The notes: generated by a model from the sequence alone, not told the origin. DNA of 64,000 nucleotides from Candidatus Micrarchaeia archaeon (GCA_050303335.1 JBNLBN010000002.1:4856-68855), one strand, 5' to 3'; numbered from the stretch's first letter, positions 4,541-59,230 are shown. Translations and numbers: made by a program.

Positions 4541-4650
4541 CTTTTCCTCATACTCTACTAAGGTTAAAAGTGCCCAAAACTTCAGGAGGTTCTTGCATGT
4601 GTTTGGGGGAAGTTTTCAAACTTGTTCGATTTTTTTTCCTCTGCATTTTT
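4541..4650 (+). repeat. tRNA-Leu-linked ~100-nt conserved 3' module, copy 2, ending in a second copy of this tRNA's own 3' acceptor strand (TTCCTCTGCA)
   Basis: It is nearly identical to 3181..3288. The terminal 10-mer matches the acceptor variant of the adjacent tRNA (CCTCTGCA here, CCCCTGCA in copy 1). Confidence 0.8.
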
Positions 4651-4696
4651 TGGAAAAATGGGTCAAAAATTTTTTACCAAATTAGTGTACAAAACT

Positions 4697-14160: not shown

Positions 14161-15192
14161 ATGCTTACGATACAAAGTTTTTTCGGGGATATGACTGGAT
14201 TGCAGTGGTCCGGCATCTGGCTTCCTCTAGTGATACTTGCAGTATTTACATCGATAATGTTCTACAACATCCTGCTGATGATCGGCAAGGCATTCTCGCT
14301 TCGCGAAGTGGAACGGTTCGCGAAATCCGAGATGCTCCAGGCACTATCCACCGCATTCATGGCATCGTTCCTGGTCATGCTGGTTGGCGGAGCGATGGAA
14401 CTGACCGGACAGTTTCTGCATGGCGAATTTGCATGCGGCGATGATGTCATTCACATATCGAGCCTTGATGACGGCCAGTCGACAATGGAGAATGTTTTCG
14501 ATGCAATAAGGTGCAGGCTTCAGTCGAGGGCAAAGGAAGTTGCAAGGATCCAGGGCGCACTGGTCGGAGGCCTCGGCCCTGCAAATGAATTCAACCTTCT
14601 CAATACTGCGCTAAGCAGTTTCGGCATCACGTTCTTCAAGGGAGACTGGGTCGGCGAACTTTACCGCGCAGTCGAGACAAAAAGGATCGCTAACAATCTT
14701 GCAACCGTGCTTCTTATCGGCCTTAACGCACAGTCCGACGTCCTCCAGTATATCAAGATTAATTCCCTGAATGTCCTTCTTCCGCTTGGCATCCTTCTCA
14801 GGAGCTTCTATTTCACAAGAAGCGTCGGCGCACTCTTCATTTCAATCGCAGTCGGGATGTTCTTCATATTCCCGGTATTCTTCATCCTTCTCGATCCTGG
14901 ATTCACGGCATCAGCACCCCCTCCGTCTTTTGCAGGGGCCCAGCAGGAAACATTCTGCTATGCTACAATGAAGAACACGATCTCGATGGTCGATGCAATT
15001 TCGCAGCTTAGCGCCGCCGGACCAAACCTCGGGATGGAACAGCTTGAAGAGGACCTGACTAAGTCATACATCTCCCTGATCATCCATCCGCTCGTTTCAT
15101 TCTTCCTGACAATGGTTTTCATAAGGTACATGATGGTGCTTCTTGGAGGCGACAGCACGGAAATAACCCGAATGGTGACAAAGGTGGTCTGA
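14161..15192 (+). CDS. envelope-locus paralog P6
   Basis: It has motif LPLGILLRSFYFTRSVGALFISIAVGMFFIFP and tail MVLLGGDSTEITRMVTKVV. A 3-nt gap separates it from P5. Confidence 0.75.
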   Translation: MLTIQSFFGDMTGLQWSGIWLPLVILAVFTSIMFYNILLMIGKAFSLREVERFAKSEMLQALSTAFMASFLVMLVGGAMELTGQFLHGEFACGDDVIHISSLDDGQSTMENVFDAIRCRLQSRAKEVARIQGALVGGLGPANEFNLLNTALSSFGITFFKGDWVGELYRAVETKRIANNLATVLLIGLNAQSDVLQYIKINSLNVLLPLGILLRSFYFTRSVGALFISIAVGMFFIFPVFFILLDPGFTASAPPPSFAGAQQETFCYATMKNTISMVDAISQLSAAGPNLGMEQLEEDLTKSYISLIIHPLVSFFLTMVFIRYMMVLLGGDSTEITRMVTKVV

Positions 15193-18100
15193 TGAGATTA
15201 TTGCTATTGATGATTCTGTTGGTGTTTGCCGGATGCCTGGCCCCGGTCGAGAAGCTCGGCTGCTGCCAGAAGGAAAACATCAGCGAAGGCTGCGTACTCT
15301 ATAATACCTCTGACTTTACCAGTATCGACATGACTGGCCAGACTGTTGCACAGTCATGCGACAATCCGGATATGGATACCGAGGGATACTGCAATGTCTC
15401 GGTAAACAATAACTACCGGCTGATCCCAATATGCACCCAGGAGGATATTGTCGAATGTGTTGATCCTGGATGCACTGCGATGGTATGCGGAGATTTCTCA
15501 TACAAGCCGAGGATTTCGCCCGTAGTAACTGATGATGAGGATCTTAGCAGCGCGACACCCACTGATTCTGATGACAGTGCGACAATCCAGTTCTACAAGT
15601 CGCAGTGCCGGTTCCTTCCGATGGATGTCGACCTGCGCCAGATCATGAAGAATTCCAAATCATCGATAAACGTCTTCCGCGTTGGGATAGGTGGTTCGTT
15701 CGACGAATACGACCAGTACAGGTATTATTTCCCGATGGCAGACGAGTTCTGCAGCGCAGCAATCTCCGGAGGATTCTCAGGAACTGTAGATCGGTATATG
15801 AATTACCTGGACCTGGCGGACAAATCGGTGTTCGATCCGGATGAAATCACAGAGAACTGCTTTGATGACGACAGCGTGCAGGGCCCATACATGAACCAGG
15901 AATCTCCGGCACTGAATCTTCCGGGGTATTACGGACTGTTCACCATCTCTACCGTGGAACCTGAAAAGAACAACTACAAGTTCGTCCATTTCATCAACTA
16001 TGACTTCACTCCGGTCTGGACACAGGATCTCCTCAAAGGGGCAGGTTATCAGTACATCCCCGGTTTCATAAACGGCCACAGCCTTTACAAGGAAATCGAC
16101 AAGGACTTCTACAAAAGGGAACTGTCCATTGCACATGCGAGTTCCATCTATGATATCGATGGCACGGGAAGCACAAGAGCACCGTTCGAATGCTCCATGT
16201 CGGAAAATAACTGCCTCTCAGGAAGCTGCAACAGTGATTTCTACAACCGCGGGGTGTTCGTCGATGCAGACAACAACAATGATATCGTGACCGACTGCAC
16301 CAGGATGAAGGACGAAAACGGAAACCAGCGGATCATATGCCTTCCAACAATAGCAGGTTCCATTGCCGAGTCAGATGATGGCAGCCCGCCTTCAAGGGAA
16401 TATTCAGATGTGACTGCAAAGGTTACGCATATTGAGATCAGCACTGTCGGTAACATGGATTTCACATACGAGGATTTCATTGATCCAGAGGCTGATCCGA
16501 AGATGATCGATTACTGGGATGCATGGGGGCTCTATCTCGAGCCGCTGGTCGACAGGTATGGCAATCCGCATTATGTATCAAGTTCTTCGAAAGTCCTGAC
16601 AAACGTTCCAACAGGAATATCACACTACTATTCGATTGAATATGTCTATGATGACGAGGGCCATTACCAATATTCCTACTACAAGCTGAATCAGGGCTTC
16701 TATTCCGGAAGCTACGGGCCTCCGGCAGGCGGTGCGGTGTTCTTCGGGAAAATCAGCGATGAGCCTATGAGGTACGGAGACGGTGAAGTGATTGGCTATG
16801 CTATGGGAGACGATTTCGATGAGACGCTTCTTGCCCAGAACTGCGAGCTTGAAGAGAACGAGGATTATGTAGTAGTGAGCCTCGGATCGCCGACCAACTG
16901 GCAGAGCTCCGGGATGATGTCTCTTTTCAGGCCATACTATGAGGATGTCCTCAAAAGCTACAAGACCTATGGTTTCGAGGAAGGCTGCGGGGATAAAATG
17001 CTTGCAACGGATTCAGTGGTTGCTTCGATGCCATGGGTGATAGCTTTTGAAAAAGGCGGACTTTCGGGGGGCCCTCTCAACACCGACTTAAGGTACAGGT
17101 TCACAGACTATCCCAATGCCTACTGGATGGCATCCACTCCGGCTTTCGGAGCATTTGCAAACAACGTGTACGATGAATATATGTACCGTTTACTCGATGC
17201 GGGAAGCTGCAGCCTCAGGATGAGCCGCTATGACTCTCCCTTGTCTAATGATTACTACAATATAGTGTACCCAAATAACTTTGTCCTACTGATCAACAAG
17301 GGCGATGACAGGTTTGGAAGATGCTCACTCGACAGGTCGACTATGTTCCCTGAGCTCAGGACATTCGGCTGGTGCGAGCCGTGCTCCACCTCCACACTCG
17401 CGTACCAGGAGATTTCCACTACCCCCAGGCCTTATCTTCCGGGCTATAAGATGAAACTGGATCCAGGGGCAACCACTTTCGAACCCCAGATCTGCTGGTC
17501 CCAGTACGAATCACACTGGGATTTCGATTTTTCATCCCAGCCGTCATTCAACCTTACAGACAACGTGACATGCTACAATCCATCAATTCCTGACATCAGT
17601 GATTACAAGGGAAGCATTGGAAACATAGGTTCTCCAAGGACCATACCTGAAGCAAGCGTTATGAAGAAGAGGCTCGGAAACTACCTCCGTTCCGGAGTCC
17701 TGCCGGTCCTTGATCTGACGGACGAATCAAACTGGAACATCACCAATCCGGATGCTGAAAGCGTCGGGTGGGACCTCTTCCAGCTGTTCTACGACACGAG
17801 CCCGGAGGACTATTCCCAGTATGACTTTGAAAGGCTGATAGGGAGGATGGGCGCTGCAGTAATAATCGTGGATACCGTATCAGAATATGATGTACAGTTC
17901 AAGGTTTCGAGAATTATCGACCGGGCATCGATAATCAAGCAGAAATGCTTCGGCTGCATCACCGCATTCCATGTTCAGAGCCCGCCCGACAATGAAAGTT
18001 TCAATTATACAATTAACAGCGTCCTGAGCAATCCAACAGCCCAGCGCGTGATAGAGATGGTCACTTTCGACTATCCTATCTCCGAGCACGGTTTCAGCGA

Positions 18101-19013: not shown

Positions 19014-19569
19014 ATTTTCCCTCGAAGACAATCTCATCAAGTGGCTTCCTGCCAGTGATCTGTTCCTTTTCCCGGATTCCTTCGGGCAGGTCATCCGGAT
19101 TTCCAGGCTTCCCGATCGCGATCATGCAGTGGATCTCATGGTCCTGCGGAAGTCCGATCACCTGCACAGCCTTAACATAATCGAATCCTTCCATTGCATG
19201 GGCTATCAGGCCCCTGCTGTGAGCCTCTAGCGCAAGGTTTTCCCATGCGGCCCCTGCATCGAAGGCATGGGTCCTTGAAGGCTTTCCGTTATATTCGAAC
19301 TTCCTGCTTGAGGTAACGATCACAAGCGCAGCGGCATTCCCCGCCCATCTCCTGTTGAAGTCGCCCATCAGTCCAAAGAAGGAATCCCAGTATCCGCTTC
19401 CCCGCAGCGCATAAACGAATCTCCATGGCTGGTTGTTGAAGGATGAGGGCGCCCATCTTGCAGCTTCGAAGAGAGCCATGATCTCGTCTTTTGCGACATT
19501 TCCATCAAGGGCCCTCGGTGAATGCCTGTTAAGGATCAAATCACTGATCTGATAATTCGGTTTTCTCAT
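19006..19569 (-). CDS. nitroreductase family protein
   Basis: The segments LNRHSPRAL, ARWAPSSFNNQPWRFVY and the C-terminal IAIGKPG are typical of the FMN nitroreductase fold. Confidence 0.8.
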   Translation of the reverse strand: MRKPNYQISDLILNRHSPRALDGNVAKDEIMALFEAARWAPSSFNNQPWRFVYALRGSGYWDSFFGLMGDFNRRWAGNAAALVIVTSSRKFEYNGKPSRTHAFDAGAAWENLALEAHSRGLIAHAMEGFDYVKAVQVIGLPQDHEIHCMIAIGKPGNPDDLPEGIREKEQITGRKPLDEIVFEGKFS

Positions 19570-44378: not shown

Positions 44379-46166
44379 CTATTTCAATTCAAAAATTTCC
44401 CCGTGCTTTTTCAATGATGCAATTTCAAGATTGGCACGATGGAACAGTTCACAAATAATCGTCCTTGCATTCTGCCTTACTCTCTCATCAGGATGGTCAT
44501 CGAGCGTATCCAGCTTTTTCCTGGCACCGGAGGCCATCTTGATGATTGCATCCATATTGCCTGAACGAAGGGCCCCATAAATAACCGTCCTTGCATTATC
44601 CTTAACAACTTCTTCTTCATGCGCTTCCAGGATCTCAAGTTCTTCCCTTGCCCCGGTTGCAAGCTTCTCAGTACGTTCCAGGCTGCCCCTGTTCAATGCA
44701 GAATAGACAATGGTCCTTGCATGTGCCCTGACAATCTCGTCATCATGTTCTTTAAGATTCTCAAGTTTTTCATCTGCTCCGGATGCCACAACGTCTGCGA
44801 ATTCAAGATTTGCTGAACGAAGGGCGGAATAGACAATGGTCCTTGCATTTGCCCTGACAATATCATCAGGATGCCTTTCAAGCATCTCCAGCTTTTCCCT
44901 TGCTCCATCAGCGAGTGTATCTGCCAGATCCAGGTTCCCCCGATCCAAGGCAGTGCTAATAATCGTCCTTGCATTATCCCTTACAACCTGATCAGGATGC
45001 TTTTCAAGTTTGCTTAGTTTCTTCCTTGTGCCTTTTGCCATCCTGTCTGCAATCTCAAGGCTACCGGAACGCAATGCAGAATAAACAATGGTCCTTGCAT
45101 TATCCCTTACCACCTGCGCCTTATGATGTTCAAGCTTCTCAAGTTTTTTCCTGGCACCGCCAGCAAGCTTGTGCGCAAGATCCAGGCTGCCCCTGGTCAG
45201 TGCGGCACAGATAATCGTCCTGGCATTATTCCTTACCACTTTGTCAGGATGATTTTCCAGCATCTCGAGCGTTTCCTTAAACCCGCATGCGATACGATCA
45301 GCGATATCCAGGTTGCCGGATCGGAAAGCAGCATAAATAATGACCTCCGCATTATCCCGTACAACCTGATCAGGGTGCGAATCGAGCATCGCAACCTTTT
45401 CCCTGGCACCAGCAGCAAGCTTGTCAGCCAGATCCAGTTTCCCTTTGTATAAGGAAGCGCACATGATGTTCCTTGCATTTGTTCTTACTGTTTCTTCCCC
45501 ATGTCTTTCAAGCATTCTCAATTTCTTTCCGGCTCCTTCTGCAAGATTGTCAGCGATTTCTAGGTTTCCGGAACGAAGGGCAGAATAGATTATTGTCCTG
45601 GCATTATCCCTTACGACCTCTTCTGGATGGTTTTTGACCATATCAAGTTTTTCCTGGATATCAAAAACAGAGACTTTGCTGAGGTTCCTTTTAGGCTGGG
45701 TGAATTTGGCCTCCAAAGCCAATTCTGTTTCTGCAACAAGGTGCCTTGCAAGATGCGGTAGCATCCTAGAAAGCCGTGTATCCTTCAACTGTTCCGACTG
45801 CTTTCCATCCTCATAATAGTGCAAAGCAATCAGTCTTGAAATGCTCTTAGCAACACCAAGGAATTCTTTTTCCACCTTCTCATCGTCAATTTTAACATGG
45901 AGTTTCATTTCCGCAAGCATTTCGTCTGCAAGATCCTGCTTTTTCTGCATGATCTTTCGCGGCAATGGCCTGGTTCTCACATCCAGAATGGATTCCACAA
46001 ACCTTGCAGCAGCCAAAGATTCATAATCATCAGTCGGGGCTTTAGTATATCGGATAACATCCTCAATAGTCGGATCCAGAAGAAGCAGTTTCCTGTGTGC
46101 TTCTGTTGCTTTCCTGGCAGCTGGTGATCGTGCAATAGACAGCAACGATATTAATCTGCCCTTCAT
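44379..46166 (-). CDS. ARM/HEAT-like 42-aa-repeat protein, array member 4 (~10 repeats)
   Basis: It has the conserved N-terminal domain (LISLLSIARSPAARKATEAHRKLLLLDPTIEDVIRY...). It has tandem repeats of the form LExLExHPDxVVRDNARTIxxxALxxGxLxxADxLAxGAxxK. Its tail is ANLEIASLKKHGEIFELK. Confidence 0.8.
   Translation of the reverse strand: MKGRLISLLSIARSPAARKATEAHRKLLLLDPTIEDVIRYTKAPTDDYESLAAARFVESILDVRTRPLPRKIMQKKQDLADEMLAEMKLHVKIDDEKVEKEFLGVAKSISRLIALHYYEDGKQSEQLKDTRLSRMLPHLARHLVAETELALEAKFTQPKRNLSKVSVFDIQEKLDMVKNHPEEVVRDNARTIIYSALRSGNLEIADNLAEGAGKKLRMLERHGEETVRTNARNIMCASLYKGKLDLADKLAAGAREKVAMLDSHPDQVVRDNAEVIIYAAFRSGNLDIADRIACGFKETLEMLENHPDKVVRNNARTIICAALTRGSLDLAHKLAGGARKKLEKLEHHKAQVVRDNARTIVYSALRSGSLEIADRMAKGTRKKLSKLEKHPDQVVRDNARTIISTALDRGNLDLADTLADGAREKLEMLERHPDDIVRANARTIVYSALRSANLEFADVVASGADEKLENLKEHDDEIVRAHARTIVYSALNRGSLERTEKLATGAREELEILEAHEEEVVKDNARTVIYGALRSGNMDAIIKMASGARKKLDTLDDHPDERVRQNARTIICELFHRANLEIASLKKHGEIFELK
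44444..45674 (-). repeat. in-frame 126-bp tandem repeats (approximate bounds)
   Basis: A 42-aa periodicity is visible in the translated product. Confidence 0.65.
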
Positions 46167-47077
46167 TTTACCACCAAATCAAAAACCTCTCCGTTTGATT
46201 CTATGGATTCAAGATCAAGATTCCCTTTATGGAGTAATTTTGATATTATTGTCCTTGAATATCTTCTTATTTTTTCATCAGCATGCCCTTCCAATTTCTT
46301 AAGTTTCTCCTTAGCACCATTAGCCAGCTTATCAGCCAATTCCAGGTTCCCTCTATTCAAAGCAGCACTAACAATAGTCCTTGCATTATTTCTTACGACC
46401 TCATCATGATGCCCCTCCAATTCCTCAAGCTTCTCCTTAGCACCTTCAGCCAGACTATCAGCCAATTCCAGGTTCCCTCTACTCAAAGCAGCATAAACAA
46501 TAGTCCTGGCATTATCTCTTACAACCCCATTCTCATGTTCTTCCAATTCAGAAAGTTTTTCAAAAATATCAAATACAGAAACTTTACTGAGATTTCGTTT
46601 AGGAAGTGTGAATTTCGCTTCAACGCATAATTCAGTCTCTGCAAGAAGATGCCTTGTAAGATGAGGAAGCATTCTCACAAGTCTTGTATCATTCAATTGT
46701 TCCGGCTGTATCCCATCCTCAAAATAATAAAGTGCAATAAGTCTTGATATGCTCTTAGCTACTCCCAGAAATTCTTTTTCTACTTTTTTCGAATCAAAAG
46801 AAACATGAAGCTTCATTTCAGACAGTACATTATAAGCAAAATTTTGCAGATTTGCCTTTAGTGGTCCGTTTGGCAATGGCCTTTCCCTGACATCCAGAAT
46901 TGATTCGACAAACCTTGCAGCGGCAAGTGATTCATAATCATTTGTCGGAGCTTTGCTGTAACGGATGACCTCCTCAATAGTAGGATCAGGCAGCAATAGC
47001 TTCCTGTGTGCCTCTGTTGCTTTGGTAGCGGCTGGTGAGTTTGCAATCGACAGTAATGAAATTAATTTTCCCCTCAT
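46163..47077 (-). CDS. ARM/HEAT-like 42-aa-repeat protein, array member 3 (~3 repeats)
   Basis: It has the same N-terminal domain and C-terminal tail (GNLDLESIESNGEVFDLVVK). It overlaps both neighbours by 4 nt. Confidence 0.8.
   Translation of the reverse strand: MRGKLISLLSIANSPAATKATEAHRKLLLPDPTIEEVIRYSKAPTNDYESLAAARFVESILDVRERPLPNGPLKANLQNFAYNVLSEMKLHVSFDSKKVEKEFLGVAKSISRLIALYYFEDGIQPEQLNDTRLVRMLPHLTRHLLAETELCVEAKFTLPKRNLSKVSVFDIFEKLSELEEHENGVVRDNARTIVYAALSRGNLELADSLAEGAKEKLEELEGHHDEVVRNNARTIVSAALNRGNLELADKLANGAKEKLKKLEGHADEKIRRYSRTIISKLLHKGNLDLESIESNGEVFDLVVK
46225..46576 (-). repeat. in-frame 126-bp tandem repeats (approximate bounds)
   Basis: A 42-aa periodicity is visible in the translated product. 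Confidence 0.65.
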
Positions 47078-48867
47078 TTTACCACTAGTACAAAAACCTC
47101 TCCGTTTGCTTCTACGGATTCAAGCTCTAAATCTCCATTTGTGAATAATACTGCCATTATTGTTCTAGCATTTTTTCTTACCCTCGCATTATCATGCTTC
47201 TCAAGCTTCCCAAGCTTATCCTTAGCACAACCAGAAAGAGAATCACATAGTCTGAGATTTCCCATTTTCAATCCTGCACCAACTATAGTCCTGGCATTAT
47301 CCCTTACAATATCATCCCTATGTTTTTCCAATTCCTCAAGCTTCTCCTTAGCACCATCAGCCAACCTATCAGCCAAATCCAGATTCCCCCTATTCAAAGC
47401 AGCACCAACTATAGTCCTGGCATTATCCCTTACAACCTCATCCCGATGCTTCTCCAGCTCCACAAGCTTTGTCTTAGTTTCAGAAGCTAACCTATCACAA
47501 AGCCCAAGATTCCCATTATGTAGTCCAGCACAAACAATAGTCCTGGCTATCATCTTGACGATTCCATCACCATGCTTCTCAAGTTCCTCAAGCTTCTTCT
47601 TAGCACTACCAGCCAATTTATCACAAAGATCCAGGTTTCCATTATGCAAAGCAACATAAACAATAGTCCTGGCATTATCCCTTACAATATCATCCCTATG
47701 TTTTTCCAATTCCTCAAGCTTCTCATTAGCACTACCAGCCAATTTATCACAAAGATCCAGGTTTCCTTTATTCAAACCAGCACCAACAATCGTCCTTGCA
47801 TTATCCCTTACAACCTCATCACCATGCTTCTCAAGTTTCTTCAATTTCTCCTTAGCGCCACTGGCCAACTTATCAACAAAATCCAGATTCCCTCGAACTA
47901 AAGCTGCATGAACAATAGTCCTGGCATAATCCCTTACAACCTCATCACCATGCTTCTCAAGTGCCTCAAGCTTCTCCTTAGCACCAGATGCCAGCCTATC
48001 ACAAAGATCAAGATTCCCTTTCTGCAAACCAGCACCAACAATAGTCCTGGCACTATCCCTTACAATCTCATCCCCATGTTCTTCCAATTCCCTAAGTTTC
48101 TCCTTAGCACCTTCAGCAAGCCTATCAGAGAGATCCAGATTCCCTCTATTCAAAGCAGCACAGACAATAGTCCTTGCATTATCTCTTACCACTTCATCCT
48201 CATGAGATTCAAGAACATCCAATTTCTCCTTAGCACCATCAGCGAGCCTATCAGCCAAATCCAGATTCCCCCTATTCAAAGCAGCATAAACAATAGTCCT
48301 TGCATTATCTCTTACAACTTCATCACCATGCTTCTCAAGTTCCTCAATCTTTTCCTGTATGTCAAAGACAGATTTTTTACTAAGATTTCTTCGAGGTTCA
48401 CTAAATTTAGCTTCGATACACAACTGCGTCTCAGCAAGCAGATGTCTTGCAAGATGAGGTAGCATCCTAACAAGCCTCATATCTTTCAATTGTTCAGGTT
48501 GTTCTCCATTTTCAAAATAATAAAGCGCAATAAGACGACAAATGCTCTTAGCAACACCAAGAAATTCTCTTTCTACTTTCTTATTTGGAAAAGAAACCTG
48601 CGACTTCATTTCAGCAAGTATTTCATCAGCAAAATCCTGTTTTTTTCTTTTTAGGGAGAATGGCAATGGTTTCTCCCTGACATCAAGGATGGATTCGACA
48701 TATTTCTGAGCAGCCAGTGATTCATAATCATCAGTCGGAGCTTTGCTGTAACGGATGACATCTTCAATAGTAGGATCAGGAAGAAGAAGTTTTCTGTGTG
48801 CTTCTGTTGCTTTGGTAGCTGCTAGTGAGTTTGCAATCGACAGTAATGAAAGTAGATTTCCCCTCAT
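47074..48867 (-). CDS. ARM/HEAT-like 42-aa-repeat protein, array member 2 (~10 repeats)
   Basis: It has the same N-terminal domain and about ten near-identical repeats (LEELEKHGDEVVRDNARTIVxAxLNxGNLDLxDxLAxGAKEK). Its tail is GDLELESVEANGEVFVLVVK. Confidence 0.8.
   Translation of the reverse strand: MRGNLLSLLSIANSLAATKATEAHRKLLLPDPTIEDVIRYSKAPTDDYESLAAQKYVESILDVREKPLPFSLKRKKQDFADEILAEMKSQVSFPNKKVEREFLGVAKSICRLIALYYFENGEQPEQLKDMRLVRMLPHLARHLLAETQLCIEAKFSEPRRNLSKKSVFDIQEKIEELEKHGDEVVRDNARTIVYAALNRGNLDLADRLADGAKEKLDVLESHEDEVVRDNARTIVCAALNRGNLDLSDRLAEGAKEKLRELEEHGDEIVRDSARTIVGAGLQKGNLDLCDRLASGAKEKLEALEKHGDEVVRDYARTIVHAALVRGNLDFVDKLASGAKEKLKKLEKHGDEVVRDNARTIVGAGLNKGNLDLCDKLAGSANEKLEELEKHRDDIVRDNARTIVYVALHNGNLDLCDKLAGSAKKKLEELEKHGDGIVKMIARTIVCAGLHNGNLGLCDRLASETKTKLVELEKHRDEVVRDNARTIVGAALNRGNLDLADRLADGAKEKLEELEKHRDDIVRDNARTIVGAGLKMGNLRLCDSLSGCAKDKLGKLEKHDNARVRKNARTIMAVLFTNGDLELESVEANGEVFVLVVK
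47139..48360 (-). repeat. in-frame 126-bp tandem repeats (approximate bounds)
   Basis: A 42-aa periodicity is visible in the product, and long stretches are near-identical at the DNA level. Confidence 0.7.
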
Positions 48868-50414
48868 TTTATCACCAAATCAAAAACCTCTCCGTGGGCT
48901 TCAACGGATTCAAGATCAAGATTTCCCTTTTGAAATAACCCTGATATTATCGTCCGTGCATTTTTTCTTACTCTTACCTCCCCATGCCTTTCCAATTTAC
49001 CAAGTTTCTCCTTAGCACCTTCAGCAAGCCTATCAGAGAGATCCAGATTCCCTCTATTCAAAGCAGCACTAACAATAGTCCTTGCATTGTCCCTCACAAC
49101 GTCATCACTATGACCTTCAAGCATCCTAAGTTTCTCCTTAGCACCTTCAGCAAGCCTATCAGAGAGATCCAGATTCCCCCTATTCAAAGCAGTACTAACA
49201 ATAGTCCTTGCATTATCCCTTACCACGACATCCCCATGCCTTTCCAATTTACCAAGTTTCTCCTTAGCACCATCAGCCAACCTATTAGCCAAATCCAGAT
49301 TCCCATTACGCAAAGCAGTACTAACAATAGTCCTTGCATTCTCCCTTACAAATTCTTCAGTATGCCCATCTAGCAGCCTAAGTTTCTCCTTAGCCCCCTC
49401 AGCCAATTTTTCACAAAAATCCAGGTTCCCTCTATTCAAAGCAGCATAAACAATAGTCCTTGCATTGTCCCTCACAATTTGCTCCTTGTGTTCTTCCAAT
49501 TCCCTAAGTTTCTCCTTAGCACCTTCAGCAAGCCTATCAGAGAGATCCAGATTCCCTCTATTCAAAGCAGCACAGACAATAGTCCTTGCATTATCTCTTA
49601 CAACCTCCTCCTCATGAGATTCAAGAACATCCGATTTCTCCTTAGCACCATTAGCCAGCCTATCAGCCAATTTCAGGTTCCCTTTATTCAAAGCAGTACT
49701 AACAATAGTCCTTGCATTGTCCCTCACAACCTCCTCCTCATGAGATTCAAGAACATCCAATTTCTCCTTAGCACCATTAGCCAGCCTATCAGCCAATTCC
49801 AGGTTCCCTTGATGCAAAGCAGTACCAACAATATTCCTGGCATTATCTCTTACAATCTCATCCTCATGGTCTTCAAGCAGTTCCAATTTTTCTAAAATAT
49901 CGAAAACAGAAACTTTACTGAGGTTCATTTTAGGATTTGTGAATTTCATTTCAACACACAATTCAGTCTCAGCAAGAAGATGCCTTGCAAGATACGGTAA
50001 CATCCTTACAAGCCTCGTATCTTTCAATTGCTCCGGCTGTTCCCCATCCTCAAAATAATAAAGTGCAATAAGTCTTGAAATGCTCTTGGTGACTCCCAGG
50101 AATTCTTTTTCGATTTTTTTAGAGTTATAAGAAACATGAAGGTTCATCTCAGCAAGTATTTCATCAGCAAAATCCTGCTTTTTTCTTTTAATTGATCTTG
50201 GCAATGGTTTCTCCCTGACATCCAGAATAGATTCAACAAACCTGACCGCAGCCAAAGATTCATAATCATCAGTCGGAGCTTTGCTGTAACGGATGACATC
50301 TTCAATAGTAGGATCAGGCAGCAATAGCTTCCTGTGTGCCTCTGTTGCTTTGGTAGCAGTAGGAGATCTAGCTATGGATAGCAGTGAGAGTAGCCTGGAC
50401 CTGTTGTGAAGCAT
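48864..50414 (-). CDS. ARM/HEAT-like 42-aa-repeat protein, array member 1 (~8 repeats)
   Basis: The start is revised to MLHNRSRLLSLLSIARSP (ATG at 50414), about 22 nt after a minus-strand GTATTTAAATACTG. It has the same domain plan, with tail GNLDLESVEAHGEVFDLVIK. Confidence 0.8.
   Translation of the reverse strand: MLHNRSRLLSLLSIARSPTATKATEAHRKLLLPDPTIEDVIRYSKAPTDDYESLAAVRFVESILDVREKPLPRSIKRKKQDFADEILAEMNLHVSYNSKKIEKEFLGVTKSISRLIALYYFEDGEQPEQLKDTRLVRMLPYLARHLLAETELCVEMKFTNPKMNLSKVSVFDILEKLELLEDHEDEIVRDNARNIVGTALHQGNLELADRLANGAKEKLDVLESHEEEVVRDNARTIVSTALNKGNLKLADRLANGAKEKSDVLESHEEEVVRDNARTIVCAALNRGNLDLSDRLAEGAKEKLRELEEHKEQIVRDNARTIVYAALNRGNLDFCEKLAEGAKEKLRLLDGHTEEFVRENARTIVSTALRNGNLDLANRLADGAKEKLGKLERHGDVVVRDNARTIVSTALNRGNLDLSDRLAEGAKEKLRMLEGHSDDVVRDNARTIVSAALNRGNLDLSDRLAEGAKEKLGKLERHGEVRVRKNARTIISGLFQKGNLDLESVEAHGEVFDLVIK
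48926..49913 (-). repeat. in-frame 126-bp tandem repeats (approximate bounds)
   Basis: A 42-aa periodicity is visible in the product. Segments are shared almost verbatim with the 47074..48867 gene. Confidence 0.7.
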
Positions 50415-50495
50415 GAATATATACTTACTGTAACAGTATTTAAATACTTGCTTTATTCTGACCTCAAAGACCATCTCTGAGATTGCCTGTTTTTG

Positions 50496-51068
50496 CTATC
50501 TCATCCTGTTTTTGGCCAGTATTGCAAGGCATGCAATTATAGTAAGCCCGCTGATTAACCCTATTGCCGTCGCAACCAGGTTCTGGTCAGCATGGTCCGG
50601 CTCATCAAGGAATTCATCAGGAGCAGCAACAGCCAGTGCCTTCGGGGCAAGGTCCTCATCATTTACTCTTTGGGCCTCCCCCGCAGCAGCTGTCTCAAGC
50701 ATCATCGGCTCATCCGCAACAGGTGCAGGAGGAACCATCATGAAGAACGATGCGGCAAGCGCTATCAATGATATGGACAATAATACGAGGACGCGGAACT
50801 CCTTGGGCCCAACTATGTTCTTCCCTTTTCTGGTCAGTTCATAGTATTTCCATTTGTGGCCGTCGTCTATTTTCTCAATAAGGTGCGTCTTTTCAAGGAT
50901 CTCAAGATGTTCCTTTATGCCGGAAACGGACATCCCAGTCTCCTTCGAGAGCTCGGTAAGGGTTTTCCTCCTTTCCTTGAGGGATTTGAGAATCTTCACT
51001 CGCGTATCGACTGCAAGAGCTTCGAAGCTCTCCTTGTCAAGAACTATCTTGTCCTCGTCCATGAACAT
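50496..51068 (-). CDS. membrane-tethered ArsR-family winged-helix regulator
   Basis: The N-terminus has an HTH (ALAVDTRVKILKSLKERRKTLTELSKETGMSVSGIKEHLEILEKTHLI...YYELTRKG). Two hydrophobic segments follow (VLVLLSISLIALAASFFMM and AIGLISGLTIIACLAILA). Confidence 0.7.
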   Translation of the reverse strand: MFMDEDKIVLDKESFEALAVDTRVKILKSLKERRKTLTELSKETGMSVSGIKEHLEILEKTHLIEKIDDGHKWKYYELTRKGKNIVGPKEFRVLVLLSISLIALAASFFMMVPPAPVADEPMMLETAAAGEAQRVNDEDLAPKALAVAAPDEFLDEPDHADQNLVATAIGLISGLTIIACLAILAKNRMR

Positions 51069-51281: not shown

Positions 51282-51312
51282 GACTCACGCTTCAAGAGTA
51301 AAGGAAAGTATA
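51282..51312 (+). promoter_or_regulatory. 5' strand of the 16S rRNA processing stem (bulge-helix-bulge-like)
   Basis: GACTCACGCTTCAAGAGTAAAGGAAAGTATA is complementary to 52952..52982 (TATACTTTCCACTCTAAATGAAGCGTGAGTC). The pairing gives 13-bp and 10-bp helices flanking a short central helix (AGAGT/ACTCT), with an AAA bulge on each strand. Confidence 0.75.
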
Positions 51313-51362
51313 ACGTCGATTCCGAAATTAATGATTAAATAATTCGGTTCAGCAGAAGATCA

Positions 51363-52897
<1,535 letters not shown>

Positions 52898-52923
52898 AAA
52901 ATTCAAATCACACTTTGAATAAA

Positions 52924-52982
52924 TTGGAATGCGTGTGCAAGAAAAAATAGTTATACTTTCCACTCTAAATGAAGCGTGAGTC
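52924..52982 (+). repeat. R1: 16S 3' flank repeat (unit a TTGGAATGCGTGTGCAAGAAA + unit b = 3' strand of the 16S processing stem)
   Basis: Unit b (52952..52982) pairs with 51282..51312. The whole a+b unit recurs at 54090..54141. Confidence 0.85.
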
Positions 52983-53107
52983 GTATATTTTCTTCTCAGC
53001 GTGAGCTCTGTTCAATAATCCTGAACTGTTTGTTTAAGAAAACTGGATGGTGGAAGCAAATTAGAAATACCAAAAGGTATATAAATATACCAATCGGTAA
53101 TTACAAT

Positions 53108-53647
53108 ATGAAATTAGAGGATTTTAGCGGAATAAAACTACTAAGCTGGTTCCTTGAAAATCCGACAAAAAAGATTCATTTCAAGGATCTTTGCCGCAAA
53201 CTAGAATTGGGTCCACCAACTGTCAAGAAATACTGCGAGGAATATATTGGTTACGGATGGATCGAGGAAGAAAGAAAAGCGAATTTGAGGATCTTCTCCC
53301 TTAATAATGAAGATTTTGTAGTAAAGGCGATCAAAAGAGCTTATTTTCTTAAAAAGCTAAGTGGACTGGGAATAGGGCAAATTGTGGATGAAAATGCAAT
53401 ATCTCTGGCACTCTATGGGAGTTATTCTTCTGGCGAATATGATGAAAAGAGCGATATTGACCTGATTATTGTAGGGAATGAGGAGAATGTAGAACATGAA
53501 AAATTGGAGGAAATGAAGAAAAAACTGAAAATGGACGTCCAGCTCACCATCTTCTCGCTTGAAAAATGGGAAAGCAATAAGGACAATGATGCTTTTATGA
53601 ACTCAGTTCTAAGGAATAATGTTCTTCTGAAAGGTGCACCTCTATGA
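53108..53647 (+). CDS. nucleotidyltransferase (MNT-type) with N-terminal wHTH; antitoxin-like partner of the HEPN protein
   Basis: The segment LYGSYSSGEYDEKSDIDLIIVG fits the minimal NTase pattern G-S-x(n)-D-x-D. The start is revised to MKLEDFSG, about 25 nt after TATATAAATA. Confidence 0.75.
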   Translation: MKLEDFSGIKLLSWFLENPTKKIHFKDLCRKLELGPPTVKKYCEEYIGYGWIEEERKANLRIFSLNNEDFVVKAIKRAYFLKKLSGLGIGQIVDENAISLALYGSYSSGEYDEKSDIDLIIVGNEENVEHEKLEEMKKKLKMDVQLTIFSLEKWESNKDNDAFMNSVLRNNVLLKGAPL

Positions 53648-54057
53648 GCTTTGAAGACTGTGTTGGAAAGGGACTTATAAAAAAATCGTCGGATGCACAG
53701 ATAAGGATCAAACAATCAGTTGATCTTGGAGATAAATTCCTTAAAAGTGCCCAAAAGAATTTTGAGATTTCCGAGTATGTTGTCAGTGAGCTTATTGCCT
53801 ATACGGCACTTTTTCATTATGCCAGGGCCCTGCTTTTTAAGTATGGGTATATAGAACGAAGCCATGCCTGCTTGTTCATAGCATTGAAGAAATTATATCC
53901 GGCAGAAAAAAAATTGATTGAAAAAGCTGATAAAATACGTATTGAAAGGCACAATCTGCAGTACTCAGGACTTACTACTGATGAGAAATCGGCCATGTTC
54001 ATACTTGCTTTCGTAAAGGAATTTGCAGAAAAGACCGATGACCTCCTGCACGAGTGA
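53644..54057 (+). CDS. HEPN-domain protein (toxin-like partner of MNT)
   Basis: It is 137 aa and helical, and its start makes an ATGA overlap with the NTase gene. The segment IRIERHNLQYSG resembles the HEPN R(N)xxx(H/Y) motif. The gene-pair architecture is typical of MNT/HEPN modules. Confidence 0.6.
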   Translation: MSFEDCVGKGLIKKSSDAQIRIKQSVDLGDKFLKSAQKNFEISEYVVSELIAYTALFHYARALLFKYGYIERSHACLFIALKKLYPAEKKLIEKADKIRIERHNLQYSGLTTDEKSAMFILAFVKEFAEKTDDLLHE

Positions 54058-54089
54058 TTGGATGCTTTTTGTTCTGATGCGATCCACAT

Positions 54090-54161
54090 TTGGAATGCGT
54101 GTGCAAGAAATATACTTTCCACTCTAAATGAAGCGTGAGTCTATTCTACTTATTTGTTTCC
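54090..54161 (+). repeat. R2: second full copy of the 16S 3' flank repeat (a+b), with tail CTATTCTACTTATTTGTTTCC
   Basis: 54111..54141 is identical over 31 nt to 52952..52982. 54090..54110 is identical to 52924..52944. Confidence 0.85.
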
Positions 54162-54210
54162 AGACTAATTTAATATGTCAATTAGGTACTGTCACAAACA
54201 AATTTTTTAA

Positions 54211-54618
54211 TCATTTTTTATCTGTTGGGCCTTCCCTTAAAAGGTCTTCTGCGCTTGGAGAATCCGTACTTATAGTATAATGATAATTGAAGACTCCATT
54301 GTCACGGTGCAAGCCGCTGCGTTTATCTGATTCGTCCGCCTGCCTAAATCCTGTTAAATAGTGTGGACCAGCTAAATCAAATTTATCAAATGGTCCTCTA
54401 TAGCAGGCAAATGAAATCGCTCCCTGCAGAGTTTCATTATCTCCCGAGAATTTTATCTCTTCGGATGTTTCAACTGATTCTGCTGACAACTCCTTAATAC
54501 CTACGTTTCTTTGCAGGGCTTCAACTCCTGCGTTGGAAAATTTTTCAGGAACCCTGAAACTGATCTCTTTTGCTGTTTTTTTGTTGACCCCTTTTCCATG
54601 AAATATATAACCTGCCAT
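54211..54618 (-). CDS. ribbon-helix-helix-like protein (paralog of 58495..58749)
   Basis: MAGYIFHGKGVNKKTAKEISFRVPEKFSNAGVEALQRNVGIKEL aligns with MVLITIEGKGKNMKTKKDISFRLPQFLSSEALANLRKNVMITEL. The ISFR(L/V)P segment is typical of an RHH beta-strand. The start is set at M23 of the track ORF, about 22 nt after ATATATAAAG. Confidence 0.5.
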   Translation of the reverse strand: MAGYIFHGKGVNKKTAKEISFRVPEKFSNAGVEALQRNVGIKELSAESVETSEEIKFSGDNETLQGAISFACYRGPFDKFDLAGPHYLTGFRQADESDKRSGLHRDNGVFNYHYTISTDSPSAEDLLREGPTDKK

Positions 54619-54774
54619 ATCTATATTTAGATGGAAAGTCTTTATATATCTTACCATTTTATACAACAAATCACTAACTGTCACTCAGTTCTCTCCAAAG
54701 TCTTGGAACTGACTTCTGCAATAACAGAGTTGCCTTGTTCATTGGCTTTCTGGACGCCTCGCCATGATTTTACC

Positions 54775-54820
54775 CTTTCCACTCTAAATGAAGCGTTAGT
54801 TGTTCTACTTATTTGTTTAC
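54775..54820 (+). repeat. R3: partial, slightly diverged copy of unit b plus the R2-type tail
   Basis: Compare CTTTCCACTCTAAATGAAGCGTTAGTTGTTCTACTTATTTGTTTAC here with R2's CTTTCCACTCTAAATGAAGCGTGAGTCTATTCTACTTATTTGTTTCC. Confidence 0.75.
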
Positions 54821-54849
54821 AAATATTTCTCTTATCCTTATTGGCAGTA

Positions 54850-55410
54850 TTAGTCCTTTGAGGGAATTGTAACCTTGATTGTGTTGCACGGTTTATCATC
54901 AGGTTGTGCTTTAACTAGTTCTATTGGTTTTTCCACCCATTTGTGGCCATTAGGAAATATGACTTTTTCTACATCAACCATCTGCGCACAACTATTCTTA
55001 GAACACTTCTGGGCCTCAATTCTAAACATGTTTTTGTCTTCGTAATTAGAAACTTCCACCCTGACACTGTAACCTTGCGATGCCCTGAGACTGGAACGAA
55101 GTCTTTCTTCAGTTTTGGGTTCTCTTATGTATAGAACTATTCCAGCCGCAGTAATTCCGTGGTACTCACATGCAGTTCTATTCGATGTCCAAATTGTGGC
55201 AGGAGGTTCAACTATTCGTAATTGATATGTAGAATAACCACTCAAATCAAAAATGCATGCAGCGGAAACAGAAGCAACAACCCCTCCAATTAGTGTTGCT
55301 TTTAGGGGATTTATTTTTCTGAACTTGTTTTTAATTCTTTCAAATGATAATTCTCGTTTCAGTGTTCCAAATTCCTGTTTAAAGGCTCCATTCATAACTA
55401 TTTTATCCAC
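54850..55410 (-). CDS. putative lipoprotein / membrane-anchored secreted protein
   Basis: A basic n-region, hydrophobic core and lipobox-like SAAC are present (KFRKINPLKATLIGGVVASVSAACIF). No domain is recognised. Confidence 0.55.
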   Translation of the reverse strand: MDKIVMNGAFKQEFGTLKRELSFERIKNKFRKINPLKATLIGGVVASVSAACIFDLSGYSTYQLRIVEPPATIWTSNRTACEYHGITAAGIVLYIREPKTEERLRSSLRASQGYSVRVEVSNYEDKNMFRIEAQKCSKNSCAQMVDVEKVIFPNGHKWVEKPIELVKAQPDDKPCNTIKVTIPSKD

Positions 55411-55470
55411 AAAAGTGTTTATAATGGTTACTATTTATGTAATTTCATGTAAAATACTATTGCGAACTAC

Positions 55471-55510
55471 AATTGAAGCATGAGTAAATCAAATTCTTCT
55501 CAGTGCTGGC
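55471..55510 (+). repeat. R4: degenerate copy of the end of unit b plus the R1-type tail
   Basis: Compare TTGAAGCATGAGTAAATCAAATTCTTCTCAGTGCTGG here with R1's ATGAAGCGTGAGTCGTATATTTTCTTCTCAGCGTGAG. Confidence 0.5.
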
Positions 55511-55566
55511 TATAATGAACACTTTGTTTAACTTTGTTGAACAAAGTAAATTGAAAAAGTATCTGA

Positions 55567-56256
55567 CTATTCCAAGAGCCTTGACATGACACATTCCTGG
55601 GGATCAGGCTTGCCTTTGCATTCTTCTGTTAGCTTCTGGATTTTCTTATCCATATCACGATGCTTCAAATCCCGCATTTTGGAAGCCATGCATACTATTG
55701 GCCCAACTTCATCCTTGCATTCGTCAGAAAATCGTTTCAATTCATCAAGCGTCTCATCGTCACGTCCTACTGTACCAAAGCAAAAACCTTGAGGATCTCC
55801 CTGAGTAACCTTGACGTATCTTTTCCCGTCTATCTTTTCAAATTCCAGTGTTAGTATAAATTCTCCAACCACTTGACCGTATTTAGTCTTTTCCCCATCT
55901 TCAAGTGTTACTCCCTCTTCGTCAATATTCCTTATTCTTTGAGTATGATCAGTTTTGAAATACTGGTTTAAATCCGTACCGATTGTTGCGATAAACTGCC
56001 TGCCAACACTTGAAAGGCAATTTTCATCGTAACTCTGTTCATCTGAAGTCATTTCAGGTTCTTTTTTATCCTCACTCTTCCCTTCCATGGATAGACAGGT
56101 ATTTGTTTCTACATCTTCAATTTGGCAGGTCTTTGTTTCAGCTGGCATTGCGGTTCTTGCAGGCATTGCAGGTTCGATTTTTGGAACACAAGAAACTGCT
56201 GATGCAAAAGCAACTGCAGAAACAACTCTGGATAATCTCTGTTTTATGTATTTCAT
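55567..56256 (-). CDS. putative lipoprotein, paralog of 56292..56729
   Basis: The signal and lipobox are VVSAVAFASAVSCVPKIEPAM. The C-terminal region EGVTLEDGEKTKYGQVVGEF...FEKIDGKRYVKVTQGDPQGFC aligns with the neighbour. Confidence 0.65.
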   Translation of the reverse strand: MKYIKQRLSRVVSAVAFASAVSCVPKIEPAMPARTAMPAETKTCQIEDVETNTCLSMEGKSEDKKEPEMTSDEQSYDENCLSSVGRQFIATIGTDLNQYFKTDHTQRIRNIDEEGVTLEDGEKTKYGQVVGEFILTLEFEKIDGKRYVKVTQGDPQGFCFGTVGRDDETLDELKRFSDECKDEVGPIVCMASKMRDLKHRDMDKKIQKLTEECKGKPDPQECVMSRLLE

Positions 56257-56291
56257 GATAAGATATTGTTACAAAAAAATAAAAAATATGT

Positions 56292-56729
56292 CTAATAAAT
56301 AGCCTGGGGCCTTTTCATGTGGTCATAATTGCAGGTCGTCTCGGGATCGTTTACTACTACTTTTACATAGTATTTGCCATCGATCTTGTCGAATCTTATA
56401 TTGCCCTGATCCACCCTGAACGTTTCGCCGTAATGAAGCTTGCCCTTCGTGCTGCTCACTTCGAATTCGACGCCTTCGTAATCGATCTTTACAATCCTTT
56501 TTGGCTCTTTTGAGGGAAATGTCCTGTATACGTCGTCTCCGACCTTTGCAACATACATCATTCCAACTGCATTAGTGCATTTTGTCGTCATGTCCGATTC
56601 AGGCGTGACCTGCTGGAATTTCGTGGAAACCTCTCCCCTTCTGCACGCCATGACCGGTTCGGTCTTGGGCGCACAAGAAAATGCGCCAGCAATGGCTGCT
56701 GCACCAGTGATAACTCTAAGCTTGTTCAT
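56292..56729 (-). CDS. putative lipoprotein, paralog of 55567..56256
   Basis: The signal and lipobox are ITGAAAIAGAFSCAPKTEPVM. The C-terminal region is EGVEFEVSSTKGKLHYGETF...FDKIDGKYYVKVVVNDPETTC. Confidence 0.65.
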   Translation of the reverse strand: MNKLRVITGAAAIAGAFSCAPKTEPVMACRRGEVSTKFQQVTPESDMTTKCTNAVGMMYVAKVGDDVYRTFPSKEPKRIVKIDYEGVEFEVSSTKGKLHYGETFRVDQGNIRFDKIDGKYYVKVVVNDPETTCNYDHMKRPQAIY

Positions 56730-57982: not shown

Positions 57983-58204
57983 TTAGATGAGAATTTCCAC
58001 ATTCGGGTCGCTCAACATTCTGTATACCGACATGTGGGATACTCCCAGGATGGTTGCGATCTTTCTCATCGAAAGCCTTTCTACGAAGTACATCTGCAGT
58101 ACTTCCTGTACCATCGCGTCTTTATCAACCCTGCCCGGGCTCGGGGGTTCCATTGGTACTCTTGGTTCTGGAACGGGAACCGTTATACTATTCACTACTA
58201 TCAC
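57983..58204 (-). CDS. small helix-turn-helix protein
   Basis: The C-terminal segment LSMRKIATILGVSHMSVYRML is a classic HTH. The start is uncertain: the track uses GTG, and an internal ATG lies at 58153. Confidence 0.5.
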   Translation of the reverse strand: MIVVNSITVPVPEPRVPMEPPSPGRVDKDAMVQEVLQMYFVERLSMRKIATILGVSHMSVYRMLSDPNVEILI

Positions 58205-58494
58205 CGATTTATATTCGGGGCCTGGATAAATCCAGTGCCCCAGTTAACCGTTGTCAATTAGCCTAAAAGGCGGTTTATCTAATCCAAAGATCTTCCGCCG
58301 CAGGATTTCCAGGTGTCACGGCTTTCGCCCATTTATCTCCTGCTTAAATTATTGCGCCATACAATAAAGGTGTAGCACAACCTATAATTAGCCAATGGCA
58401 TATGTTTAGAGACCATTTCGTTTTTCATCATAGTGTTACACCTCCAGTGCTTTGTAGGATTATTTGGGACTTAAAAGATATATAAATGTTTGTA

Positions 58495-58749
58495 TCAGTT
58501 AATTGCCGTCCGGTCCAGCTCCGGCTCGAAGCTTTTGAAGGGATCCCCGGTCATCGCAGTCTCGATCATGCGTATCGCATCCTCGTGGTTTTTTGTAAGG
58601 ACCCTCTTTTCAACGACAAGTTCCGTAATCATCACGTTTTTTCTCAGATTGGCCAATGCTTCAGATGATAAAAACTGCGGCAGCCTGAATGAGATGTCCT
58701 TCTTTGTCTTCATATTTTTTCCTTTGCCCTCGATTGTGATAAGTACCAT
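58495..58749 (-). CDS. ribbon-helix-helix-like protein (paralog of 54211..54618)
   Basis: See 54211..54618 for the alignment. The start is set at M23 of the track ORF, about 22 nt after a minus-strand TTTAAATATAAG. Confidence 0.5.
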   Translation of the reverse strand: MVLITIEGKGKNMKTKKDISFRLPQFLSSEALANLRKNVMITELVVEKRVLTKNHEDAIRMIETAMTGDPFKSFEPELDRTAIN

Positions 58750-58849
58750 ACAATTAGATATTATTGGCTTATATTTAAATAAATTGCCATGTTCTATAAC
58801 AATTATACCAGGCAAAGCTTTTTTATCAAATTTGTCTAATTCTAGTCAG

Positions 58850-59230
58850 GTGCTTGATTTGGCTAAGAAAAAAGATGAAAAGGAAGGACTTGTAATTACT
58901 CCGAGGCTGAAAAGGAACTGGCTGATGATCCGGAAAGCCTATAATGTATCACTTGAGGCTTTCGGTGCTAACATATCCAGGCTCTCAGAGGATGAGGCAA
59001 ATGAGATGTATGAACTTATCAGGCACGCGCTTTACAAGGACAATATAGCCCAGATCATCCAGGAGGAGCCGAAAATGAGGGAATTCCTCAGGAACGAGGA
59101 TGACCGGCTCTGCATGTACGAGATATACGAGAATCTCTCCTGGAAGCTCGGGAAAAGGGAAAAGGCCCCGGAATACAAGCAGAAGATCAACCGTTTCAGG
59201 ATGGCAGTCAAGAAAACCCTTGTTCCTTAA
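58850..59230 (+). CDS. hypothetical helical protein (start uncertain, possibly GTG at 58850)
   Basis: The 5' half of track ORF 58490..59230 is antisense to the RHH gene and hydrophobic nonsense. Only the 3' part looks protein-like (LDLAKKKDEKEGLVITPRLKRNW...EYKQKINRFRMAVKKTL). Confidence 0.35.
   Translation: MLDLAKKKDEKEGLVITPRLKRNWLMIRKAYNVSLEAFGANISRLSEDEANEMYELIRHALYKDNIAQIIQEEPKMREFLRNEDDRLCMYEIYENLSWKLGKREKAPEYKQKINRFRMAVKKTLVP

Follow-up and report, generated by a model that had tools for sequence, protein, structure and literature searches.

Transfer RNA (tRNA) and transfer-messenger RNA (tmRNA) genes are the classic landing places for genomic islands, and tandem accretion of integrase-less elements occurs. 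Some mobile elements, such as the R1/R2 retrotransposons and the archaeal ribosomal RNA (rRNA) introns that carry homing endonucleases, reside within the rRNA gene itself and code for an enzyme of their own. More generally, a conserved anchor can admit foreign DNA by homology-facilitated illegitimate recombination or Campbell-type insertion, processes that leave direct repeats of the anchor. Integrons and clusters of attC sites lacking integron integrases (CALINs) have been described in archaea (PMC9668308), and archaeal pre-rRNA has processing stems with bulge-helix-bulge (BHB) motifs, cleavage by EndA and circular pre-16S intermediates (PMC7038931, PMC10351888, PMC7714728). Here we describe a 64,000-nt stretch of DNA (the window) from a Candidatus Micrarchaeia archaeon (GCA_050303335.1 JBNLBN010000002.1:4856-68855) in which the 3' strand of the 16S processing stem, a component of the 16S trailer, is present in four copies, R1 to R4, within 2.6 kb, separating small gene units of low guanine-plus-cytosine (GC) content. 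The literature searched held no description of a reiterated 16S trailer. Repeated insertion at a variable site beside the 16S gene is the most likely origin of the structure, and we consider it probable, with some reserve, that the four copies were left behind as relics by successive DNA insertions into the 3' flank of 16S in this micrarchaeon.

The native 16S trailer and its further copies

The full-length archaeal small-subunit rRNA gene lies at 51363..52898 (+) (Rfam RF01959, 1372 bits), and no 23S gene is linked to it within the window. As in known archaeal BHB stems, the two strands that flank the 16S gene form a long helix interrupted by two opposite 3-nt bulges and a short central helix, an arrangement that is phylum-wide. 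The 5' strand, U, is at 51282..51314 (+); it is the sole copy in the window (the only U-type match of the 12-mer core) and makes a 33-nt inverted repeat with the native 3' strand, R1, at 52950..52982 (+). The predicted U:R1 duplex consists of a 13-bp outer helix and a 12-bp inner helix with a total of -45.0 kcal/mol, in agreement with an earlier note on this DNA, which had claimed that the R1 sequence pairs with the 16S upstream flank. Bulges of 3 nt (AAA, AAA), one per strand and on opposite strands, flank the central helix AGAG(T)/(A)CTCT, which has 4 bp in the consensus and a fifth pair in the window and most relatives, whereas the described stems have strictly 4 bp. The outer helix GACTCACGCTTCA shows no variation across 12 lineages, and the inner helix varies in sequence by lineage with complementarity kept in each. 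Judged by sequence, U and R1 are a normal archaeal BHB-type processing stem; what sets the window apart from the described stems is that it has 3-4 copies of the 3' strand versus one 5' strand.

The same trailer architecture was found in ~14 other Micrarchaeota lineages (loci L001, L003, L005-L008, L014, L018, L021, L029 and L086-L093 in our numbering), and the closest 16S genes found range from 96.7% (L003) down to ~91% identity. In these relatives the order is a hairpin, a box GGAAKGCRGTGTGC (equivalent to the 21-mer discussed below), a variable stretch, ACTCTAAWTGAAGCGTGAGTC, a T-run and often AGCGYGAGC, and all of them have the core ACTCTAAATGAAGCGTGAGTC +72 to +99 nt past the end of 16S. 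R1 carries every element of this architecture. Its box is the first copy of the 21-mer (52924..52944, +), at the same place as in L003, L006, L007, L086 and L093, and it is followed by tail A (52983..53064, +), containing TTCTTCTCAG and TGAAC..TTTGTTTAA, with a T-run, a AGCGTGAGC motif and a TGTTCA/TGAAC inverted repeat. Tail A resembles the native tails of L003 (z=4.0) and L093 (z=4.3), and its motif also occurs in L008, L014, L018, L021 and L001. Since all elements are present and the tail is like those of L003 and L093, R1 with tail A can be taken as the working native trailer. The motif AGCGYGAGC, at 52999-53007 in the window, stands after the T-run that follows the BHB strand in most of the Micrarchaeota examined (L001, L005, L008, L014, L018, L021, L029, L086-L090 and L093). 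In part a repetition of the BHB strand (AGCGTGAG), it would be able to form 8 nt of pairing with the upstream strand; L087 has three consecutive copies of it, and TTAGCGCAAGC follows the 23S 3' end in L032 (~19178-19188).

The search for additional copies covered the 64-kb window. The 31-mer at 52952-52982 in R1 recurs at 54111-54141 in R2 with 31/31 nt identical, as the earlier note had stated, and the 21-mer TTGGAATGCGTGTGCAAGAAA occurs in the window at 52924-52944 and 54090-54110 only (2 matches versus 0.01 expected). The 21-mer was said to precede both 31-mers; it is indeed found at both, abutting the 31-mer in R2 only and separated from it in R1 by 7 nt (AAATAGT). Apart from this 7-nt deletion the R2 unit, a displaced and intact trailer copy at 54090..54141 (+), is identical to the R1 unit at 52/52 positions. 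R3 (54771-54801), proposed earlier as a slightly diverged copy, agrees with R1 at 27/31 positions and has a 26-nt core with 1 mismatch; at <=3 mismatches this 26-mer core gives 3 matches in the window against 0.00 expected. With its tail R3 extends over 54771..54821 (+), lacks the 21-mer and would be an older displaced copy. R4 (55466-55503) has 71% identity to R1 over 38 nt and is the top non-trivial nhmmer match in the window, the next ones having E>=12. Its downstream tail (~130 nt) resembles the R1 tail (z=5.2 versus shuffles), and R4 with this tail A' is 63% identical to R1 with tail A over 132 nt. Together they occupy 55466..55575 (+) and form the most decayed copy, which is probably the oldest and adjoins a lipoprotein-like gene.

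The copies carry the two tail types that had been reported for them, in the order A, B, B, A' along the locus, with tail A after R1 and, diverged, after R4. Tail B, TTCTACTTATTTGTTT, follows R2 and R3 exactly and is found nowhere else in the window: its first copy is at 54142..54162 (+), and the exact 16-mer occurs otherwise only at 54803-54818. R2 with tail B and R3 with tail B are 92% identical over 48 nt, and R3 and R4 have their own substitutions and unique left flanks. No fifth copy of the core was found in the 64-kb window, and a search there for the 21-nt and 31-nt units beyond the locus gave no further copy; the copies are confined to one locus. On these alignments R2 appears to be a second copy of the box and BHB strand, R3 a BHB strand with tail B, and R4 a decayed BHB strand with a native-type tail.

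Identity to R1 falls outward (R2 100%, R3 87%, R4 ~70%), and the predicted pairing with U falls with distance from -45.0 kcal/mol for R1 to -43.8, -33.1 and -27.9 kcal/mol for R2, R3 and R4. L014 has two trailer copies, at +52 to +209 and +906 to +1066 (73% over 163 nt), bracketing one gene; in the distal copy the stem part has ~73% identity and the tail part 98%, and the duplex energy is -26.1 kcal/mol versus -45.1 kcal/mol in the proximal copy. L014 is an independent second case of trailer reiteration, whereas ~13 further lineages represented by a 16S gene plus flank have a single trailer copy.

These patterns bear on the suggestion, also made in the earlier note, that the distal copies are working alternative BHB partners that yield circular or spliced RNAs with the cassette mRNAs or tune 16S maturation. 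R2 would suit such a role, being on the same strand as U, 33 nt after the stop codon of the HEPN gene in the R1-R2 interval, with 52 nt of identity to R1 and a predicted energy close to that of R1; it is still fully able to pair, and occasional mis-pairing on read-through transcripts is possible. A selected function is unlikely because the distal copies decay, two of the three cargos (those of R2-R3 and R3-R4) run antisense to the rRNA, and R1 is followed by a T-run with a separate conserved TATA/operator before the MNT gene. In R3 and R4 the pairing with U is lost, the distal copy of L014 has a decayed stem while its tail has not decayed, and the lineages with one trailer copy manage with it. 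The suggestion is not supported, and we regard alternative BHB partners as distinctly improbable. Insertion of an RNA-splicing type at the BHB cleavage sites was rejected as well: R1-R3 span the bulge intact and are not split there, and this is therefore evidence against it.

Variable DNA and the genes between the copies

The three bracketed intervals, 0.66-1.16 kb in length, have GC contents of 0.373, 0.378 and 0.360, compared with 0.484 in the first 42 kb of the window. Because of this difference (36-38% versus ~48%) the bracketed DNA looks foreign or acquired. One unit is on the plus strand (MNT/HEPN) and two are on the minus strand, i.e. antisense to the rRNA transcript. The R1-R2 interval contains an MNT/HEPN toxin-antitoxin module (53065..54057, +) comprising a TATA/operator (53065-53107), MNT (53108-53647) and HEPN (53644-54057), the two genes overlapping by 4 nt; Pfam matches (MNT, PF01909/PF18765, E=5e-10; HEPN, PF05168, E=7e-11) confirm the content assigned to this interval earlier, and the same pair is conserved in L094-L105. 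Between R2 and R3 lies a 135-aa ORFan (54211..54618, -) with no Pfam family. The ribbon-helix-helix (RHH) label that it had received was dropped, as Pfam gave no match even at E<=10; no relative but itself was found in a database of 5.8 billion proteins, and its N-terminus is 50% identical over 40 aa to 58609-58728, in a weak paralogue at 58495-58815 (-). The R3-R4 interval encodes a 186-aa protein (54850..55410, -, from the list of open reading frames, ORFs) with an N-terminal hydrophobic segment. This segment, ending in ..SAAC, was recognized by eye only; the protein, earlier designated a putative lipoprotein, has no match to a Pfam family and no viral relatives, and none were found for any of the three cargo proteins. 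Two paralogous lipoprotein-like genes of 229 and 145 aa follow at 55567..56729 (-); their mutual identity is 32%, and a homologue follows the L091 trailer.

MNT homologues of 53-73% identity are present in many Micrarchaeota, and MNT/HEPN homologues were found in at least 5 genomic contexts that have nothing in common with one another or with rRNA genes. DNA homology to the L094-L099 modules starts at ~53065, and its last aligned base is ~54041, within ~20 nt of the HEPN stop at 54057; by this measure the module extends from the TATA/operator ~43 nt before the MNT start to near the HEPN stop. MNT/HEPN can be regarded as a mobile module with boundaries of its own. The palindromic TATA/operator TACCGAWAGGTATWTAAATATACCAATCGGTAA precedes MNT in every context (window 53065-53107; L094, L095, L097, L100 and L102) and is probably where MNT, through its winged-helix N-terminal domain, regulates its own expression. 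In L100, three tandem MNT/HEPN-type pairs (2939-6192) lie next to an AbiEii gene and have no common inter-cassette repeat beyond the promoter.

The content of the intervals also speaks to a purely local origin, in which the trailer was duplicated by slippage or unequal crossing-over without horizontal transfer and unrelated DNA was gathered later. The copies are tandemly oriented and local, and unequal exchange is expected once two copies exist, but the intervals are mutually unrelated, of low GC and of mixed orientation, the MNT/HEPN unit is mobile and has defined boundaries, and two tail types alternate in what is not a simple tandem array. We rate a local origin as improbable.

Comparison with relatives places the four copies in a larger region of variable DNA. 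A small helix-turn-helix (HTH) gene at 57983..58204 (-), identified by Pfam HTH matches, marks the far edge of this region in the window; 8 relatives retain its orthologue and, beyond that, a 113-aa gene downstream of 16S. The interval from 16S to HTH is 723, 866, 1707, 2036, 2072, 3209, 4685 and 5546 nt in the 8 relatives and 5085 nt in the window, and the genes inside it are unrelated among relatives. L086 and L093 come from sister samples; their 16S gene and trailer are the same, and all similarity ends directly after AGYGTGAGC. The trailers of L014 and L087 are 97% identical and are followed by ~4.0 kb in L014 that are missing from L087; this extra block (16S 3' end +101 to +4208) holds a gene for a 776-aa Pro/Lys-rich protein and the decayed second trailer. 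The DNA directly after the 16S trailer thus appears, from these genomes, to be a phylum-wide variable spot in Micrarchaeota. In L091 a homologue of the lipoprotein-like genes of the window (34-37% identity) is convergent and lies ~130 nt after the single trailer BHB strand, matching the window order R4, tail A', 229-aa lipoprotein-like gene. Because of this arrangement R4, now 2.5 kb from the 16S gene, may be the oldest copy. The phylum-wide core of the trailer matched 8 metagenome contigs, with a single copy in each.

Other variable DNA lies near the 16S locus. An ArsR-type gene (50496-51068, -), whose homologues are annotated as Candidatus Micrarchaeota, is divergent and upstream of 16S. Beyond it, four genes for proteins of 33-34-aa repeats (VVRDNARTIVSTALNRGNLDLSDRLAEGAKEKL-like) at 44379-50474 (-), with ~42% GC, sit between the ArsR-type gene and an AhpC/thioredoxin gene, two genes that are adjacent in L001, L003 and L005; this ~6-kb block looks like a second lineage-specific insertion, on the other side of the 16S locus. 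The short ORF at 58495-58815 (-) is placed between the HTH gene and the 113-aa gene, in a second variable interval, and overlaps the non-conserved 5' part of a mechanically called ORF at 58490-59230.

Proposed serial insertion and the possible routes

The arrangement can be accounted for by serial insertion as follows. The native trailer, with its box, BHB 3' strand, T-run and AGCGYGAGC, would have to stay beside the 16S gene for the stem to form, and the insertion zone would be the phylum-wide variable DNA just past it. Incoming segments (the MNT/HEPN module and two orphan genes) would have carried or regenerated a copy of the near-invariant trailer, and recombination within or beside the trailer would have set each new unit near the 16S gene, leaving one working trailer, R1. 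Each insertion would shift the prior trailer copy outward, where, free of selection, it could decay, as the series of an intact R2, R3 at 87% and R4 at ~70% suggests. The 52-nt (R1/R2) and 48-nt (R2/R3) direct repeats flank inserts and rebuild the target. The data show the repeats, the native status of R1 with tail A, the variable flank, the mobility of the MNT/HEPN module, the decay gradient and the independent L014 case; from these we infer the event order, whose exact course is not derivable from the tail pattern, and the recombination route. The route could be Campbell-type or homology-facilitated recombination between trailer copies, or the action of a recombinase in trans. The pattern A, B, B, A' also fits another possible route, namely the stacking of 'trailer + downstream gene' alleles from related Micrarchaeota, anchored on 16S and trailer. 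Of the serial site-specific insertion put forward in the earlier note, the insertion scars, the variable flank, the low-GC cassettes, the mobile MNT/HEPN pair and the L014 case stand, while site-specificity of the integrase type was not shown.

Several findings weigh against serial insertion. The segments duplicated by the supposed events differ in extent (52 nt, 48 nt and ~110-130 nt, the last diverged), and one uniform mechanism is therefore not evident. Trailer reiteration was found in only 2 of ~15 lineages, so most insertions at the spot do not duplicate the trailer. Low GC runs past R4 to ~56.8 kb, and the repeats therefore do not bound the whole island. No recombinase was detected among the 40 window ORFs scanned against Pfam, which include all those at 52.9-58.8 kb. 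The core of R4 alone is marginal (nhmmer E=0.1-0.4 in the window, with R4 excluded from the model), and R4 would be credible as a decayed copy only with core and tail taken together. Comparison of relatives revealed a variable flank and a single trailer in related species, but neither a strain of the same species nor one without a cassette was found: a species-specific 20-mer of R had no match in GTDB representative genomes, JGI metagenomes or IMG/VR, and exact look-ups of window proteins in an assembly index gave none either.

The contig is, in addition, a metagenome assembly, from a metagenome-assembled genome, a source in which strain variants with a common trailer might be stitched in series by the assembler. 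Consistent with such an artefact, R1 equals R2 in sequence, and strains that occur together can have 16S and trailer in common and differ in the DNA beyond, as do L086 and L093. Against it, the junction of HEPN, 32 nt, 21-mer, R2 and tail B is unique and must exist in some molecule, R3 and R4 differ from R1 in both sequence and left flank, and L014, from a different study, has the same kind of structure. We give an assembly artefact very little credence.

A more specific form of insertion would be integrase-mediated accretion, with the BHB 3' strand as the core of an attachment (att) site and a tyrosine or serine recombinase, encoded elsewhere or on a helper, that inserts integrase-less cassettes. 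The MNT/HEPN unit is enclosed by perfect 52-nt direct repeats, every duplicated segment holds the same core CTTTCCACTCTAAATGAAGCGT, and the R2/R3/R4 series reads like attL, internal att and attR, with tail A' on the distal copy by the probably ancestral neighbour gene; furthermore, the 38-nt repeats around the HicAB genes of L097 (see below) regenerate the 3' terminus of a host gene in the manner of integrative elements. These points are opposed by cassettes of only 0.66-1.16 kb, by the lack of a match to an integrase family among the 40 scanned window ORFs (Pfam), and by the fact that the repeats around the MNT/HEPN module elsewhere are different ones. A simple attB x attP exchange also predicts an element arm on the proximal copy, but R1 has a native-type tail (z~4 versus L003 and L093) and the tail of R4 is of native type too, and R2 has, in addition, the 21-mer on the left side of the core. 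No IMG/VR viral contig has the species-specific or the phylum-wide core, and no virus or plasmid contig carries the site. Accretion by an integrase is thus possible but unlikely. Two other readings were rejected. An integron/attC array does not fit, as the DNA folds of the four units have z=-0.27 to +0.03 versus shuffles, with no hairpin, no IntI and mixed cassette orientation, and neither does a transposon or insertion sequence, as there are no terminal inverted repeats, the duplications are of 31-59 nt (versus 2-15 bp) and no transposase family was matched.

Direct repeats around two-gene modules at other loci raise a broader idea. Interspersed direct repeats of 24-90 nt were few in the 1.27 Mb of DPANN loci surveyed for them, and they include those of L097 and L035. 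In L095 an MNT/HEPN pair lies between perfect 28-nt direct repeats (4344-4371 and 5460-5487), and diverged copies of the same repeat family separate MNT/HEPN from a ParE-type pair in L094. This family, of 30-55 nt, has the form ..TTCAATGARCGCA..AAAACCYNG..GTGCGGTCTGA, with L094 copies at ~186-214, 1304-1340 and 1896-1932. Homology between it and the window repeat was considered and rejected, since the R profile gives no match to its copies; a short AATGA(A/G) resemblance is unproven. In L097 the HicA/HicB genes sit within a perfect 38-nt direct repeat (10869-10906 and 11503-11540), which also restores the 3' terminus of a 112-aa host gene; a further copy, the third, is incomplete and diverged and is located just internal to the right end. 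In L035 a perfect 58-nt direct repeat (14740-14797 and 16473-16530) surrounds two minus-strand genes of 264 and 228 aa. This pair has no credible family match, and a suspected AbiE-type identity, based on visual recognition of a motif, was dropped for want of Pfam support. The 58-nt repeat contains ATGATGA and CTGA boxes that resemble parts of C/D-box RNAs with atypical spacing, and no tRNA was found at it. The BHB 3' strand might then be the landing site of an unrecognised, integrase-less system of cassette exchange, integron-like but without attC hairpins or IntI, and the same exchange process would explain the perfect 28-58-nt repeats around the L095 MNT/HEPN, L097 HicAB and L035 modules. 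Taken jointly, these two proposals are doubtful and we advance them only tentatively.

Significance and comparison with known systems

The stable-RNA landing places known so far are tRNA and tmRNA genes; if serial insertion is true, an rRNA processing element has that role in the DPANN archaea, a group with little-known genome dynamics. The trailer element is identical over ~20 nt in lineages with 16S genes only ~91% identical to that of the window and could therefore be a phylum-wide handle for the exchange of small cassettes. The locus also provides a natural experiment on rRNA maturation, in which one upstream strand has several possible partners and the distal ones have apparently been lost over time. 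In practical terms, assemblies of these organisms may contain mis-joined contigs, or contig breaks, at the trailer spot.

Like rDNA-targeting elements, the insertions use the rRNA locus as a safe and conserved target, but in the window they lie outside the mature rRNA. Integron arrays offer another parallel, as they consist of one- or two-gene cassettes, including toxin-antitoxin pairs, split by a repeat of uniform sequence in each array; they differ in that the window repeats are pieces of an rRNA trailer and not attC hairpins (z~0), the orientation is mixed and no IntI was found. For homology-facilitated or Campbell-type insertion, 16S plus trailer would serve as the conserved anchor, although this anchor would be only ~30-60 nt if the trailer alone is used. 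Islands at tRNA and tmRNA genes share the use of a conserved stable-RNA locus, direct repeats that rebuild RNA-related sequence, stacked units and distal repeats that decay. In contrast to these islands, the target in the window is a non-coding rRNA trailer and not a gene body, no integrase was found, the units are of 0.66-1.16 kb and the proximal copy has the native tail. The structure is real and unusual, and it is a variant of the theme of a stable-RNA locus as a landing site.

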